In this document: positions 23,900-29,966 of the stretch, one piece after another | How positions within the stretch are numbered: the stretch's first letter is position 1 | Layout: each line of letters begins with the position of its first letter | NCBI GenBank assembly: GCA_038046445.1 | Contig: JBBSWE010000185.1 | Coordinates: 1 to 34,525, forward strand | From: Nanobdellota archaeon | GTDB taxonomy: Archaea > Nanobdellota > Nanobdellia > Woesearchaeales > GW2011-AR9 | Length of the DNA stretch: 34,525 nt | Reading direction: 5' to 3' | The notes under the pieces: generated by a model | Seen by the model: the letters and a program-made list of their open reading frames with translations, nothing else | What the model was told of the DNA's origin: nothing | Database searches by the model: none | Made by a program: the position numbers and the translations under genes

Positions 23900-24238
23900 G
23901 GTAGGGGTGGTAGATAGCAGAGGGTAGCAATACTCAGGAAAGTCCGTCCACTAACTTATCGCAAGAGTAGCGCGACGATGGCTCTCAGAGAGAGAAGGGG
24001 AAAACCCTTGGCTCTGGCTCCAGCAACGACACGTCCATAACTTAGGATGAAAATGGCGAAGTTTTCAGCGATGAAAATGAGTTAATCCGTTGACGTTGGT
24101 TATGGGAACGATGAAACGGCGAATCCCCATCGGTGCAAGTTCCGTTGTGAACGCTTAGTAGAATGCTATCAAATGATCATCGACATCACTGGTTGATGTT
24201 TTGGGTCAATACAAAAGACGGCTTATTCCCCCCTACCC
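23900..24238 (+). ncRNA. rnpB: RNase P RNA (archaeal, type-A-like)
   Basis: Terminal helix 'ggtagggg' (23900-) pairs with 'cccctacc' (-24238). CR-I/P4 5' strand 'GGAAAGTCC' at 23937-23945. CR-V/P4 3' strand 'AGACGGCTTA' at 24216-24225. A GC-rich, non-coding stretch of about 339 nt in an AT-rich genome. Confidence 0.8.
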
Positions 24239-25500: not shown

Positions 25501-25959
25501 ATGTCTTCAGATTATCACCTTGCTTGGAATAATGCGATCCAACAGCAACGTATCGCTGCCCATCTGCTGGAAGTTACTTTTCCCCTTTCTAAAGATCCCA
25601 AACTGCTGTTAGGAGTAATCTATAATCTCTGCGGAGCGTTAGAATATGCTTTAGATGCTCTCCTTCTTTCGGAAGGGATTACGGCAGGAGAAGGTTTTCA
25701 AAGCAAACTTACTGCGTTAAAGATAAAATCCAGCCAAGGAAGCAAAATCACGTTAGAAGATATCAAATTCATGCATTGGCTGCAAGAGATTAAAGTCAAG
25801 CATAAGCAATCACCAATGGAATTTCAAAGAGGCAAAAATTTGGTGATTTGCAGTGCCGAATATCAAATGCAAGTACTTTCCGTTCTAGAAATCAAGAAGT
25901 ACCTTAAACAAAGCGAAGAACTGTTGCAACGTTTAAATGGCGTTATTAATCGAAAGTAA
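25501..25959 (+). CDS. hypothetical all-helical protein (member 1 of a pair)
   Basis: 152-aa ORF with weak colinear similarity to the next ORF. Confidence 0.45.
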   Translation: MSSDYHLAWNNAIQQQRIAAHLLEVTFPLSKDPKLLLGVIYNLCGALEYALDALLLSEGITAGEGFQSKLTALKIKSSQGSKITLEDIKFMHWLQEIKVKHKQSPMEFQRGKNLVICSAEYQMQVLSVLEIKKYLKQSEELLQRLNGVINRK

Positions 25960-26004: not shown

Positions 26005-26472
26005 ATGGATGAATACCTTTTAGAAGCGCGCGAAGAGTTAAAGCGCCTGGAACACATTATTTACGTCAGTTTAAAATATACCCGAACCACGGATGTAATT
26101 ATTAACGCTTTAACCCGTTTAATAAGCGTTTTTGATCTGATTATTGAAGCTTATCTAGAAAAAGCTAAAGAGGAAGGAAAAATTACTACTCTTCCAAAGA
26201 GCCCGGCTCTTCGTGGGACCATATTAGGAAAGTTATATGGGGAAGACCCAGAACTGCAAAAGTATTTGGAATTTTATTCTTTTTTGAAAATCATCCTAAA
26301 ATCTTCTTATAATAAACGCGAAGAATATCGCCGCCACGTTACCGTAATTGTAGAATTAGATCAGTGCACGGCTTTCGTAGACATCGATTGCCTAATTAAC
26401 TATGAAAGATTTGTACGCAATTTCTTGAAATGTGCTTACCGCCAGATAGAAGGAAGGAAGGACGAGGATTAA
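26005..26472 (+). CDS. hypothetical all-helical protein (member 2 of a pair)
   Basis: 155-aa ORF. See the previous entry. Confidence 0.45.
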   Translation: MDEYLLEAREELKRLEHIIYVSLKYTRTTDVIINALTRLISVFDLIIEAYLEKAKEEGKITTLPKSPALRGTILGKLYGEDPELQKYLEFYSFLKIILKSSYNKREEYRRHVTVIVELDQCTAFVDIDCLINYERFVRNFLKCAYRQIEGRKDED

Positions 26473-26502: not shown

Positions 26503-27426
26503 TTATCTTTTCTTCTTAGGCAATCCTCTATTAACTTCCTTGCTAGATATTTCACTGGAAAACTTATCTTCAAACTTAGTTAAAACATCCATCCTAAGAA
26601 TATAAGTATCAGCATGTTGAGCATAAGCAATCCAACCTTCCATAAAATCATAGAGTTCATCGTAATCTATTTGCTTATTTTCAAAAAGACTTATGTTTTC
26701 CTTAAGCGTTCTTTGAAATTTCCGACGGTTTCTCCTTTTGATTAATCGGTAATGTGAAAATACCTTGAATCCCAGAAAGTCAACGCCATTCTCTAAGGAA
26801 ATAATTCTTGACTTATCTGGATGCAGTTCTAAAGCAAGATGTTCGTAAAGAAAAGAATCAATCTTGTTTTTCCATTCTTCCAAAAGAATTTTAGATGGAT
26901 GTAATATCACAAAATCATCCACATAACGCAGATAATACTTTGCTTTCAATTGGTGTTTAACAAATTGATCTAACTCATTAAGATAGACATTAGCAAAGAA
27001 TTGACTGGTTAAATTACCTAAAGGCATTCCCTTTTCAGAAGAATGATTTTTAAGAATCTTCTTAATCAACCAAACTATTCTTGCATCTTTAATCTTAGAT
27101 TTAAGTATCTTAAGCAAGGTGTCATGATTTACAGTTTCAAAATAATGCCGGATATCTGCTTTCAAGACGTAAGCGGGAAAAGCATAGTTTTTGGTTATCT
27201 CTTTAGAAAAATGTTCAAATCGTTTTATGGCTTTAAAGGCTCCTTTACCAATGCGGTTTGCATAAGAATCGCAAATAAAGCTTTTCTCAAACAGGGGTTC
27301 GATAACGTTGCATAAAGCATGATGAATAACTCGGTCTCGAAAATGAGCTTTGCTAATCTTCCGAGTTTTAGGGTCACGAAGAATGAAAGTCTCTAATGGA
27401 CGTGGCTGATAAGAATGAAATAATAA
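26503..27426 (-). pseudogene. DGR-type reverse transcriptase, C-terminal 307 codons (separated from its N-terminus by an IS insertion)
   Basis: 'FRDRVIHHAL', 'ADIRHYFETVNH', 'GMPLGNLTSQFFANVYLNELD' (the DGR-typical (I/L)GxxxSQ motif) and 'YLRYVDDFVIL' (YxDD). The frame is open from the IS boundary at 27426 to the stop at 26503. Confidence 0.85.
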
Positions 27427-27442
27427 TTGCTGTGTTGCATAA
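27427..27442. repeat. IS left terminal inverted repeat
   Basis: TTGCTGTGTTGCATAA. An exact reverse complement lies at 28600-28615. Confidence 0.85.
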
Positions 27443-27446
27443 ATAA

Positions 27447-27575
27447 TCAATCGTTCACAATAATTACATAGGCTCTTTTGCCTATGTACTTTTTTGGTGC
27501 ATCCAGTTTTCCAGAGTTCCCAAATTGAGTGATTACTTTTTCATACACTACATTGACCTTTTCTTTAATGATCAT
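27447..27575 (-). CDS. small IS-encoded protein, AbrB/SpoVT-like (reminiscent of the archaeal DUF2080 transposon-associated family)
   Basis: A 42-aa ORF not in the track: MIIKEKVNVVYEKVITQFGNSGKLDAPKKYIGKRAYVIIVND. 'aggag' lies just upstream of the ATG. The 'FGNSG...PKK.IGK...V' pattern is recalled from memory. Confidence 0.45.
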   Translation of the reverse strand: MIIKEKVNVVYEKVITQFGNSGKLDAPKKYIGKRAYVIIVND

Positions 27576-27661
27576 GTCTCCTGATAATAATTTAATTTGT
27601 CTCATGGATTTAGGATATCCATGGATATATTTAAATATTTGTATACTCTAGTATATAGATT

Positions 27662-28582
27662 ATGGCAAAAAACAAAAGATGGGGAGACACATACATAGAC
27701 CGGCGTAATTGGCCAGTTTATAGCGAACAGCTTGTAAAGCGAGGAGAATATCTCCTCGATACTGATTTTGTATCCAATTGGGATAAAGAGCTTTCCAACA
27801 TGAATGCTGGAAAGCACGGAGCACCTTACCAATTTCCAAATACGCTTATCGAACTACAAGCAGTTTGGCATGCGAAAATGATACCTTGTCGCATGATTGA
27901 AGGAATTACTAGGAAATTGGCAGACCTTGAGAAGGTTCCCAATTTCAACGATTTTTCTACAATTAATCGACGTATAAACAAGCTATCCTGTCAGCTAGCA
28001 ATTCCTGCGTCAGACAACTTAACCCTATTTAGTGATGGTACAAGTTTGCAAGCAGTAGAAGGTGGAGAATACCTTCGTGAAAAATACGGAAAAAAGAATC
28101 GTCGTTGGATTCAAGTTGTAATCCTCGGCGATCCTAAAAGCAAAGAACCAGTAAGTTATGAAGTGAATCTAATTCAAGATTCTGAATTGGCTTCAACAAA
28201 AAGACAGCTTGTTGAATTGAAAAAAAATAAGATAAACATTGTAGCTGTTGGTGGAGATGGTTCTTATGATGAAATCGCTTTCTGGAACCAACTGGTTTAT
28301 AATCGGATTGAACCGATTATAAAACCAGATAGAAATGCAATAATCCCTTCTGGAAGTAGAGAAAGAGACAAAAATACAGAAGAACGGAATGTACTTGGTT
28401 ATGATCTTTGGGCAAGAGAACATGGATATGGGTATCGTTGGCCAGCAACGGAAGGGATATTTAGCGCAGTAAAACGTATATTTGGAGAAGAAGTTCATGC
28501 TAAGACCGAGTTAGGTATGCTTCAAGAAGCCAAAATTAAGTTTTGGGCGTATCAAAAGATTAAACTTTATGGAGAAGCATAG
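27662..28582 (+). CDS. DDE transposase, IS5-family-like
   Basis: 306 aa. N-terminal 'NWPVYSEQLVKRGEYLL' resembles the IS5-group 'NW.aYNeaL..RGsl' motif. Candidate DDE triad in 'LFSDGTS', 'VGGDGSYD' and 'YGYRWPATEGIFSAVKRIFG' (YREK-like). Confidence 0.8.
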   Translation: MAKNKRWGDTYIDRRNWPVYSEQLVKRGEYLLDTDFVSNWDKELSNMNAGKHGAPYQFPNTLIELQAVWHAKMIPCRMIEGITRKLADLEKVPNFNDFSTINRRINKLSCQLAIPASDNLTLFSDGTSLQAVEGGEYLREKYGKKNRRWIQVVILGDPKSKEPVSYEVNLIQDSELASTKRQLVELKKNKINIVAVGGDGSYDEIAFWNQLVYNRIEPIIKPDRNAIIPSGSRERDKNTEERNVLGYDLWAREHGYGYRWPATEGIFSAVKRIFGEEVHAKTELGMLQEAKIKFWAYQKIKLYGEA

Positions 28583-28599
28583 CGGAAGCTATGCTTCAA

Positions 28600-28615
28600 T
28601 TATGCAACACAGCAA
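28600..28615. repeat. IS right terminal inverted repeat
   Basis: TTATGCAACACAGCAA, the exact reverse complement of 27427-27442. Confidence 0.85.
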
Positions 28616-28769
28616 ATAATAATTCTGTTCTTAACAAAAATAGATTATCAAACAAGTGGTCTTCAAATTCAATCACATACAACTTTAAGGTTTTATGTTT
28701 TCTTGCTCTTTTGAAAGCCAGTTCTAAATTCTTCTTGGAGCAAAGCTGCTCCCACAGGTCATCAGTCAA
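28616..28769 (-). pseudogene. DGR-type reverse transcriptase, N-terminal fragment
   Basis: '(L/M)TDDLWEQLCSKKNLELAFKRARKHKTLKLYVIEFEDHLFDNLFLLRTELLF' is a typical DGR-RT N-terminus. The possible start is the TTG at 28769, since there is no in-frame ATG. The frame is also open upstream through the TR to 28889. It continues in phase with 27426 once the IS and one TSD copy are removed. Confidence 0.75.
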
Positions 28770-28793
28770 AATGAAAGTCTCAGCACGCTGGGC

Positions 28794-28885
28794 TATTCCA
28801 CGGACGCGGTTATTGTTATTGATGTTACGATCATTCGCGTTGAAATTGGAATTGTTGTTGAAATTATTCAGCCACGAAGCCCGCC
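28794..28885 (-). repeat. DGR template repeat (TR)
   Basis: Ungapped 92-bp match to 29294-29385. On the minus strand it is AAY-rich (..NNFNNNSNFNANDRNINNNN..). 17 of its 31 adenines differ in the VR. It lies immediately upstream of the RT. Confidence 0.85.
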
Positions 28886-29070
28886 TCACGAATAGCTCTT
28901 ATTGCTTTGGAAGTGCTCTCTTCCATCACACACCATGGCTTCATTTCTGTCGCCATTGTAATTTATCAAACTGGAACTTGTTCAATTTGAAGGTTTCATA
29001 ACCGAGTCGCCTCAGCCCTAGCAAAAGAGCGTGTAGTCCAGCCTACTCCATACGAAGCTGCTGAGACAAC

Positions 29071-29099
29071 TAAAAGAAGAAAAAAGAAGTATAAAAAGT
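29071..29099 (-). terminator. oligo-T tract after the DGR target gene
   Basis: The minus strand reads 'actttttatacttcttttttcttctttt' directly after the stop at 29100-29102. Confidence 0.35.
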
Positions 29100-29966
29100 T
29101 TACTGAGCTTTTCCAGCCAAATATCTGGTTAAAATACATGACAAACCGGCAGCAGTTTTATCATCTAAAGCACTTACTGCAGCATCAGGACTACCTAAGA
29201 TTCTAGCGTAACAATTGCCCAAAGTCATTTCCTGTGGAGCTATTGGAACACTTGGAGTCTCGGACGCGTCGCCTGCGGCGACTACCTCACGACGTACCCC
29301 ACGGACGCGGGAATCGTAATAGATAGTACGAACAACCGCGTTGAAACAGGAATAGTAGTTGAAATAATACAGCCACGAAGCCCGCCCAATAGCGTCTTTC
29401 TTGGCATTAGCCTTAACATAATCTGGAGCTAAAACGTAAATTTTAGTTTCAGCAATTCTCTGCGGAGAAGTTCTCAATTTAGCCATATTAGCATCATAAT
29501 CTGCTTCAGTTGGTCCGAATACTCTCTTCAATAATTTTTGCTGTTCAGGATTGTAATCTCCGATATCTTTGGAAGTATCAACAGCCAAATAACGCCATTC
29601 TTTCTCTTTACCAGATAATTCTAATTTGGTTAAGTCAATAGTGACGGTATCATTTGCAGCTTTTACAGCAGCAAAATCTTCGGGAGTAACAAAATAATTT
29701 TCTTGAGTGGTTAATTGTATGAAAGCATCATCTATATTATTTAAAACTGGATTAACAGCTTTTCTAGTAATTCTTAAAGTAGGAGTTCCGTTATACATAG
29801 AATAAACTTCTCCATCAGCAGTGTAGAACCATAGGTCTCTTAAACTTGCGTCGTCTCGGCGTTCTCGCATTAATTCGTCAACGTGTTTTAAAGTGCCAGG
29901 AACTGCTTGCTTGTAAGCATCTCTTAAATTTCCATCAATATTCTCAATTTTTTGTTCTAAAGCCAT
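29100..29966 (-). CDS. DGR variable (target) protein; no signal peptide; VR encodes residues about 195-224
   Basis: 288-aa ORF with GGAGG (29973-29977, minus strand) 6 nt upstream of the ATG. It contains the VR 'GRASWLYYFNYYSCFNAVVRTIYYDSRVRG', which resembles a minimal C-type-lectin-fold VR. No other domain recognised. Confidence 0.8.
   Translation of the reverse strand: MALEQKIENIDGNLRDAYKQAVPGTLKHVDELMRERRDDASLRDLWFYTADGEVYSMYNGTPTLRITRKAVNPVLNNIDDAFIQLTTQENYFVTPEDFAAVKAANDTVTIDLTKLELSGKEKEWRYLAVDTSKDIGDYNPEQQKLLKRVFGPTEADYDANMAKLRTSPQRIAETKIYVLAPDYVKANAKKDAIGRASWLYYFNYYSCFNAVVRTIYYDSRVRGVRREVVAAGDASETPSVPIAPQEMTLGNCYARILGSPDAAVSALDDKTAAGLSCILTRYLAGKAQ
29267..29281 (-). promoter_or_regulatory. 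GC-rich hairpin just 3' of the VR (candidate DGR homing-associated stem-loop)
   Basis: GTCGCC-tgc-GGCGAC, a 6-bp perfect GC-rich stem with a 3-nt loop, 13 nt downstream (coding sense) of the VR/TR homology boundary. It is absent at the equivalent TR position. Confidence 0.5.
29294..29385 (-). repeat. DGR variable repeat (VR)
   Basis: See the TR entry. Mismatches to the TR are confined to TR-adenine positions except one (29324). The 3' end shares an invariant GC-rich block, CCGCGTCCGTGG on the minus strand. Confidence 0.85.

Follow-up and report, generated by a model that had tools for sequence, protein, structure and literature searches.

Among the diversity-generating retroelements (DGRs) described so far, those of the phage BPP-1 and of Nanoarchaeota stand closest to the locus considered here, which lies in a 34,525-nucleotide stretch of a Nanobdellota archaeon (GenBank assembly GCA_038046445.1, contig JBBSWE010000185.1, positions 1 to 34,525; the window from here on). 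In the BPP-1 DGR, with its reverse transcriptase (RT) bRT, its accessory protein Avd and its target Mtd, a template repeat (TR) is transferred to a variable repeat (VR) with changes specific to adenines; RNA on both sides of the TR wraps the bRT-Avd complex, primes the synthesis of complementary DNA (cDNA) and stops it at a duplex beside the 5' end of the TR, and the N-terminal extension of bRT contacts Avd. Avd is present in about 74% of DGRs and is thus not universal. DGRs without it, known as 'architecture A', have been put at 29% (Wu et al., PMC5758913). Archaeal DGRs were first described in Nanoarchaeota, the phylum of SCGC AAA011-G17 (PMC4372165). Their published signature is TGGGGT for the initiation of mutagenic homing (IMH) sequence of the VR and TGGAAT for its TR counterpart (IMH*), together with a hairpin that lies within the target open reading frame (ORF) and has a GRA trinucleotide loop (Paul et al. 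2015, PMC4372165).

The locus in the window, at positions 26,503 to 29,966, is very probably a chromosomal DGR of this Nanoarchaeota or DPANN type, in which an insertion sequence (IS) has most likely frozen the VR and a structured leader RNA would stand in the place of Avd. With the Nanoarchaeota (DUSEL4) DGRs of Paul et al. 2015 (PMC4372165) it shares the order of target, TR and RT, the TGGGGT/TGGAAT pair, an AAY-rich TR, a GC hairpin with a trinucleotide loop within the target ORF and a VR that is internal and precedes a helical tail, and two SCGC AAA011-G17 loci (L038, 101 bits; L040, 82 bits) likewise carry an RNA of the Rfam RT-16 type directly 5' of the TR. It departs from them in an RT that is 52-58% identical to the SCGC AAA011-G17 RTs, in a target of a different sequence family (no tblastn match), in a hairpin loop that reads GCA and not GRA, in a leader RNA that is an RT-11-like variant and in the interruption of its RT by the IS. 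The likeness to BPP-1 extends to adenine-specific transfer from TR to VR, an IMH, a hairpin, a target of predicted C-type lectin fold and an RT whose closest solved relative is bRT (6e-42), with a shared [I/L]GxxxSQ motif. Unlike BPP-1, the locus has no Avd, has its RNA domain upstream of the TR, where the BPP-1 spacer (Sp, Rfam RT-10) is downstream, starts its RT about 25 nt after the TR, and has an internal VR, a coding hairpin and an archaeal chromosome as host.

Central to this reading is the pair of repeats. The TR occupies 28794-28885 (minus strand), as a preliminary description of this DNA had it, and the VR 29295-29386 (minus strand), the two aligning without gaps. That description had put the offset at exactly 500 bp and the VR at 29294-29385; the repeat search gives a spacing of 501, at which 74 of 92 bases match as against 28 of 92 at 500. 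Its other statements on the pair hold, namely the count of 18 mismatches, the seventeen coordinates listed for those at adenines, the translations of both copies and the position of the second copy inside the 288-aa ORF, where the VR makes up codons 194-223. When the 92-mers are aligned and tallied per TR base, the mismatches are not spread evenly over the four bases: 17 of the 31 adenines differ, as against 1 of the 61 other bases (one-sided Fisher p = 2.8e-9). The two 3'-most mismatches, AA to GG at 28796 and 28797, coincide with the fixed end marker, TGGAAT in the TR (28795-28800) and TGGGGT in the VR (29296-29301), and are a fixed directional marker, not a product of mutagenesis, so that the mutagenic differences amount to 15 at the 28 adenines of 28798-28885. 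All of these 28 adenines fall within 15 codons (13 AAY, one GAT and one ATC), 12 of which differ in the VR, each of them non-synonymously. The VR lies in the 3' part of the target gene, and diversification of the 15 codons can reach no stop codon, allowing 3.1e16 possible protein variants. No other adenine-biased repeats turned up when both strands of the window were scanned from end to end.

The RT gene next to the TR is in two pieces, both on the minus strand. The 5' fragment (28625-28769) probably starts with the TTG at 28769-28767 and codes for the N-terminal extension, and the 3' fragment (26503-27428) encodes the rest of the RT domain, from about bRT residue 50 onward, with LGNLTSQ and YVDD (PF00078, 3.6e-21). 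The DGR-RT hallmarks that had been read from the ORF beside the TR, RDRVIHHAL, LGNLTSQFFANVYL and YVDDFVI, are all present. Deletion of 27429-28624, that is, of the inserted element and one copy of its flanking repeat, restores a single RT ORF of 356 aa, whose junction between LLRTELLF and HSYQPRPLETF shows no gap against 15 intact homologues (60-85% identity). The repaired RT matches Pfam RVT_1 and carries motif 4 of the DGR clade, [I/L]GxxxSQ, along with YxDD; its LGNLTSQFFANVY aligns to IGSLTSQLFANVY of bRT, LGNLTSQ stands opposite IGSLTSQ, and YVDD is present. Its best match in the PDB is BPP-1 bRT (8ub7_A, 6.4e-42, over residues 5-326), the next being a group II intron RT at 1e-24.

It could be argued that the locus is no DGR, the 92-mers being an ordinary duplicated gene fragment beside the RT of a group II intron, a retron or a defence system, given that the top NCBIfam match of the RT is a group II intron RT model (165 bits) and that public annotations name its relatives 'group II intron RT' or 'retron-type RT'. 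However, the NCBIfam RT models (group II intron, retron, Abi, DRT) all score far below their cut-offs (165/300, 62/235 and 80/200 bits), Rfam detects neither a group II intron RNA nor an msr-msd RNA, and among solved structures bRT leads by 17 orders of magnitude in E-value, so that the clustering with group II intron, retron or Abi RTs by which the preliminary description would have been refuted is not what the repaired RT shows. The restriction of the mismatches to adenines, and the recurrence of the same architecture with an adenine-biased pair in about 50 loci, further reduce the probability of this alternative to next to nothing. The earlier interpretation as a DGR is therefore supported on several sides, by the TR/VR bias, the DGR-clade RT, the IMH and IMH*, the hairpin, the AAY codons and the predicted C-type lectin fold of the target.

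Relatives of the RT number in the thousands in Woesearchaeota and Nanoarchaeota metagenomes, and in GTDB species genomes a relative is encoded in 591 of 600 candidate stretches among the matches listed. The best 80 related RT loci are almost all from DPANN metagenome-assembled genomes and include the SCGC AAA011-G17 RTs. About 50 of the 80 have an adenine-biased pair with the TR directly upstream of the RT and the VR 300-500 nt further upstream, which agrees with the initial remark that DGRs are known in DPANN archaea. In the two closest intact relatives (RT identity 86% and 77%) the mismatches are confined to adenines, 16 of 16 and 22 of 22.

The part of the locus that is of most interest lies between the target and the TR, where the preliminary description had seen a compact order of target, 210-bp gap, TR and RT. 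The order stands, but the 'gap' contains a TATA-like box and a conserved structured RNA. The target stop is 214 nt from the TR, and this interval is highly conserved with respect to the two closest relatives. Directly 5' of the TR, at 28887-29074 (minus strand), lies a leader RNA with full-length matches to two Rfam motifs, RT-11 (RF03106; 29063-28931, 78.6 bits, E 1.3e-16, 1-158/158) and RT-16 (RF03019; 29074-28887, 48.9 bits, E 2.5e-6, 1-147/147), with which it shares the CUGGACUACACGC and AUAAAAUACA strands as well as the helices; what sets it apart from the Rfam motifs, besides its scores, is its precise position, against the 5' end of the TR in archaeal DGRs. The RNA comprises hairpins at 29057-29046, 29015-29002 (with a GCGA loop), 28956-28935 and 28924-28909, and a long-range helix of 10 bp (29030-29021 with 28905-28895) that ends about 10 nt before the TR, all on the minus strand. 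The TATA-box-like TTTTTATA (29090-29097, minus strand) precedes the conserved RNA start GTCTCAGC by 22 nt and is found at an equal distance from the RNA start in related loci; judged by its sequence and position, it may be the promoter of a transcript that spans the RNA, the TR and the RT.

The conservation of the leader RNA is both positional and structural. Searched with a profile built from the window and its closest relatives, more than 20 other loci show the element in the interval that separates the target from the TR. RT-16 scores at or above threshold in 25 of the 33 related loci scanned, and among the 24 threshold-passing loci with a mapped TR its 3' end is at most 6 nt from the TR 5' boundary in 23. 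Applied to 25 loci in a plain MAFFT alignment, RNAalifold derives two helices with 15 pairs, the 10-bp long-range helix and a 5-bp helix (28956-28952/28939-28935). Within them 95.4% of the cells are paired, as against 70% in shuffled alignments and 32-54% when the partner strand is slid, and double-sided changes number 108 where 36 would be expected. In Weinberg et al. 2017 (PMC5737381), RT-10 is the only motif linked to a DGR, as the BPP-1 spacer 3' of the TR; RT-11 and RT-16 are listed there without an assigned function, with speculation on the other RT motifs. Among the papers that we searched, none places RT-11 or RT-16 in DGRs.

It is tempting to propose, though at somewhat less than an even chance, that in the Avd-less DPANN DGRs the DGR RNA has a leader domain on its 5' side, which RT-16 and RT-11 represent. 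The closing helix would then determine where reverse transcription ends on the 5' side, in the manner of the 'cPRT stop' duplex of BPP-1, and the rest of the domain would recruit the RT in Avd's place, so that a minimal archaeal DGR would consist of one RNA, one protein and the target, and the window locus would be a natural knockout with its VR frozen by a recent IS. The two roles ascribed to the leader RNA here, recruiting the RT and stopping reverse transcription, are drawn by analogy with BPP-1.

The absence of a visible Avd, noted at the outset, holds for the neighbouring genes and across the related loci. None of the neighbouring ORFs shows similarity to Avd in Pfam, NCBIfam or the PDB, and when the ORFs surrounding 50 TR-RT loci are clustered all against all, the RT alone proves universal and no family of small ORFs recurs. 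Both the absence of Avd and the compactness of the locus are thus real, yet they are the norm for this DPANN clade and not a peculiarity of the locus, as they had seemed. Several candidates for an accessory gene were set aside. Two ORFs downstream of the RT, of 152 aa (25501-25959) and 155 aa (26005-26472), are helical; they have no similarity in Pfam, NCBIfam or the PDB, are absent from all 85 related loci and sit amid housekeeping genes (NAC, Sec61-beta). A 47-aa ORF in the spacer (28996-29139) matches the closest relative only and overlaps the leader RNA, and a cluster of 83-aa ORFs from six loci turned out to be antisense ORFs within the RT gene.

The remaining cis elements also recur among the relatives. 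The full TGGAAT/TGGGGT hexamer is found in 17 of 62 TR/VR pairs, and most of the others have the short form, GAAT versus GGGT. Within the target ORF, 13 nt past the IMH, lies the hairpin GTCGCC-GCA-GGCGAC (29268-29282, minus strand), with a 6-bp GC stem and a GCA loop, in what the structural model of the target renders as a low-confidence linker. Related loci have a hairpin at the equivalent position, with stem sequences that vary while pairing persists, and loops that read GAA (24), GGA (4), GCA (2) or GTA (1). Support for the element comes from this retained pairing across differing stems and not from folding energy, the thermodynamic z-scores of the GC-rich 46-mers being not significant. 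A hairpin like that of Sp directly 3' of the TR was also considered and rejected, since the 30 nt past GAAT in 47 loci fold with a mean of -2.9 kcal/mol, compared with -2.8 kcal/mol for shuffled sequences (Wilcoxon p = 0.9); the GGGA, AGGA or GAGAC that recurs 3' of the TR is more simply the ribosome-binding site of the RT. Just 5' of the TR, GCUAUUC (28889-28895, minus strand) is complementary over 7 bp to GAAUAGC (28793-28799, minus strand) at the IMH*. A GGCUA/UAGCC core is compatible with pairing in most related loci, and because its 5' strand is invariant it lacks two-sided covariation, so that a duplex closing the TR is hinted at and nothing firmer.

The target gene (29100-29966, minus strand) encodes the 288-aa variable protein, of which the exact sequence occurs as a single entry in a collection of 15 billion proteins. 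That the protein had appeared unrecognised is borne out at the level of sequence, where it has no sequence or profile match in Pfam, NCBIfam or the PDB, AvpA included; at the level of fold it is not. The AlphaFold model, built on an alignment of homologues, has a predicted local distance difference test score (pLDDT) of 91.4, falling below 50 at residues 234-246, and its only significant fold match in the PDB is AvpA, a variable protein diversified by a Nanoarchaeota DGR (5ioo_A; Foldseek E 8.9e-8, probability 1.00, template modelling score 0.70 over AvpA, 13% identity). The target is thus predicted to be a C-type-lectin-fold protein of the AvpA subclass with an internal VR and a helical C-terminal extension. 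According to the model, it resembles AvpA (PDB 5IOO; PMC5006420) in fold, in a VR of about 27-30 residues that lies near and not at the C-terminus, and in a flexible, hairpin-encoding linker that precedes the helices. It differs from AvpA in having no sequence or profile similarity beyond the 13% identity, in its greater length (288 aa, with a 65-residue tail) and in its 15 variable codons as against 12.

All 85 homologues of the target come from DPANN archaea. Their alignment conserves the scaffold IGRASWLxxFxxxSxFxAxxRxIxxxxRVRGVRR, in which the hypervariable columns, marked x, coincide exactly with the AAY codons of the TR. After the VR (alignment columns 401-483) the homologues continue with a tail ending in DDKTAAGLxxLLxxYLATRGQ, with an unrelated tail ending in EQFEAGLRKLYK, or with none, which suggests that the C-terminal tails are modular. 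Two further loci, L001 (6001-9429) and L002 (6001-8835), hold tandem arrays of 3-4 target-family paralogues, each with a VR-like segment, and have no RT or TR within 6 kb; the paralogues may be targets served in trans or retired targets.

The cause of the split in the RT gene is an IS5-family element of 1185 bp (27429-28613). That the RT needed repair had been hinted at earlier, when an 'in-silico repaired' RT was mentioned; the repair proves apt, and the insertion now supplies the cause, which had gone unstated. The element has perfect 14-bp terminal inverted repeats, GCTGTGTTGCATAA, and is flanked by 11-bp direct repeats (27418-27428 and 28614-28624). It encodes an IS5-family DDE transposase of 306 aa, the name also given by NCBI (27662-28582, plus strand; NF033579 at 142.3 bits against a cut-off of 140, PF13737, PF01609), and a DUF2080 transposase-associated protein of 52 aa (27447-27605, minus strand; PF09853 3.5e-15, NF033496), so that a family transposase, inverted repeats and a target duplication are all found together. 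The site duplicated on insertion is rich in A and T and reads AAATAATAATT on the plus strand. The insertion and its 11-bp duplication break the RT ORF after about codon 48 and part the N-terminal extension from the catalytic core; no comparable interruption occurs among the best 80 related RT loci. As both RT fragments are otherwise free of stop codons and the transposase is intact, the insertion looks recent, and since an identical DUF2080 protein is found on 5 contigs, the IS probably has several copies and was active recently.

Because the element separates the N-terminal extension of the RT from its catalytic core, we consider it rather probable that this copy of the DGR is now off, with the VR frozen in its last diversified state. 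Several points weigh against the picture drawn so far, some touching the assignment to the known families and others the present inactivity. The TR and VR differ at one base other than adenine, a C-to-T change at 28824 that turns the diversified codon ACC into ACT and is synonymous. The loop of the hairpin, GCA, is a minor variant and not the published GRA. The leader RNA falls under the Rfam gathering thresholds, with 48.9 versus 50 for RT-16 and 78.6 versus 143.5 for RT-11. However, the RNAs of the subclade to which the window belongs are an RT-11-like variant scoring 73-104 bits, and as the nearest relatives L004 and L005, which have an intact RT and adenine-only mismatches, score on Rfam like the window, the sub-threshold score is a trait of the subclade and not a sign of decay. 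As to inactivity, another locus of the genome could supply a DGR RT in trans, some members of the population could lack the IS, and a truncated RT could conceivably still be produced. On the minus strand the DUF2080 stop codon overlaps a TTG (ATTGA, 27446-27450) with which the 315-aa 3' RT fragment begins, so that transcripts reading out of the IS might yield an RT without its N-terminal extension.

That the cassette is still active through another DGR RT of the genome, serving this TR/VR pair in trans, appears quite improbable. The promoter candidate, the leader RNA, the TR, the IMH, the hairpin and the target ORF are all intact, Nanoarchaeota have been reported with at least 4 DGRs per genome, and trans service has been suggested for fragmentary DGRs (PMC4372165). 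Further, the TR peptide RASWLNNFNNNSNFNANDRNINN is near-identical across RT loci of 60-65% identity, and target paralogue arrays without an adjacent RT exist. However, neither the window nor the 10 kb of contig covered past its high-coordinate end contains another RT or TR/VR pair (at the low end, the contig stops about 50 bp beyond the window), the fit between RT and RNA in BPP-1 is intimate and specific, and the synonymous non-adenine change in the VR is a weak sign that some time has passed since homing last occurred. It is likewise unlikely, if somewhat easier to conceive, that the IS is polymorphic, or an artefact of assembly joining, and that most cells retain an intact, working RT. IS copies commonly cause assembly ambiguity, and the five contigs with the identical DUF2080 protein make the IS multicopy somewhere, but both junctions have the anatomy of real transposition, with perfect inverted repeats and a target duplication, and excision restores the reading frame exactly. 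Moreover, records with the identical 315-aa RT fragment exist for two contigs (NCBI, ENA), as do records of the transposase, and no empty-site allele of more than 90% identity occurs among 5.8 billion proteins.

For the preferred reading, a chromosomal DPANN-type DGR that its IS has probably silenced, the following course of events may be envisaged in intact copies. Transcription would start about 25 nt downstream of the TATA-like box and yield the leader RNA of RT-11/RT-16 type, the 92-nt TR and the RT mRNA. The RT would copy the TR into cDNA, misincorporating opposite adenines, and the cDNA would replace the VR in the target gene, guided by the IMH marker (TGGGGT in the VR, TGGAAT in the TR) and by the GC hairpin just downstream. 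The 13 AAY codons, the GAT and the ATC would thereby be rewritten in the ligand-binding face of the AvpA-like C-type lectin protein. No Avd would be used, and the leader RNA would presumably act as a scaffold and stop cDNA synthesis, tasks that in BPP-1 fall to Avd and the flanking RNA. With the IS5-family element in RT codon 48 or thereabouts, the cassette is most likely off and the VR would be held in its last diversified state.

The surroundings of the locus are those of an archaeal chromosome, as the archaeal RNase P RNA at 23900-24237 (plus strand; RF00373, 117.6 bits) indicates. Genes for NAC, Sec61-beta, SecDF and a MinD-like ATPase also lie in the window, and a search of it for tRNA genes gave none. 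Public gene calls deal poorly with the retroelement. In the window they place a 136-aa ORF antisense to the TR and the RT 5' fragment (28591-29001, plus strand; 28596-28889, minus strand) and miss both true features. Since the TR and the RT share a reading frame in many relatives, callers report there 'RTs' of 390-435 aa that open with the TR peptide RASWLNNFNNNSNFNAN.

Overall, a further DGR by itself adds little, given that DPANN archaea are known to be rich in DGRs and that the locus fits the published Nanoarchaeota pattern feature by feature. What is new relative to the earlier reading is the RT split by an IS, the TATA-like box and the RT-11/RT-16 RNA in the presumed gap, and the lack of any recurring Avd-like gene in 50 loci. 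The gene calls serve as a warning to annotators, who may lose the RT 5' fragment and the TR to a spurious antisense ORF. An RT split by an IS with its cis elements intact represents a natural off-state, and could be used to calibrate the calls of 'active versus inactive' in metagenomic surveys of DGRs. Moreover, the orphan motifs RT-11 and RT-16 gain a concrete context, the 5' boundary of the TR in almost every related DGR. The leader RNA also provides a testable handle on how template binding and the arrest of cDNA synthesis are achieved in DGRs without Avd, which make up about a quarter of the total.

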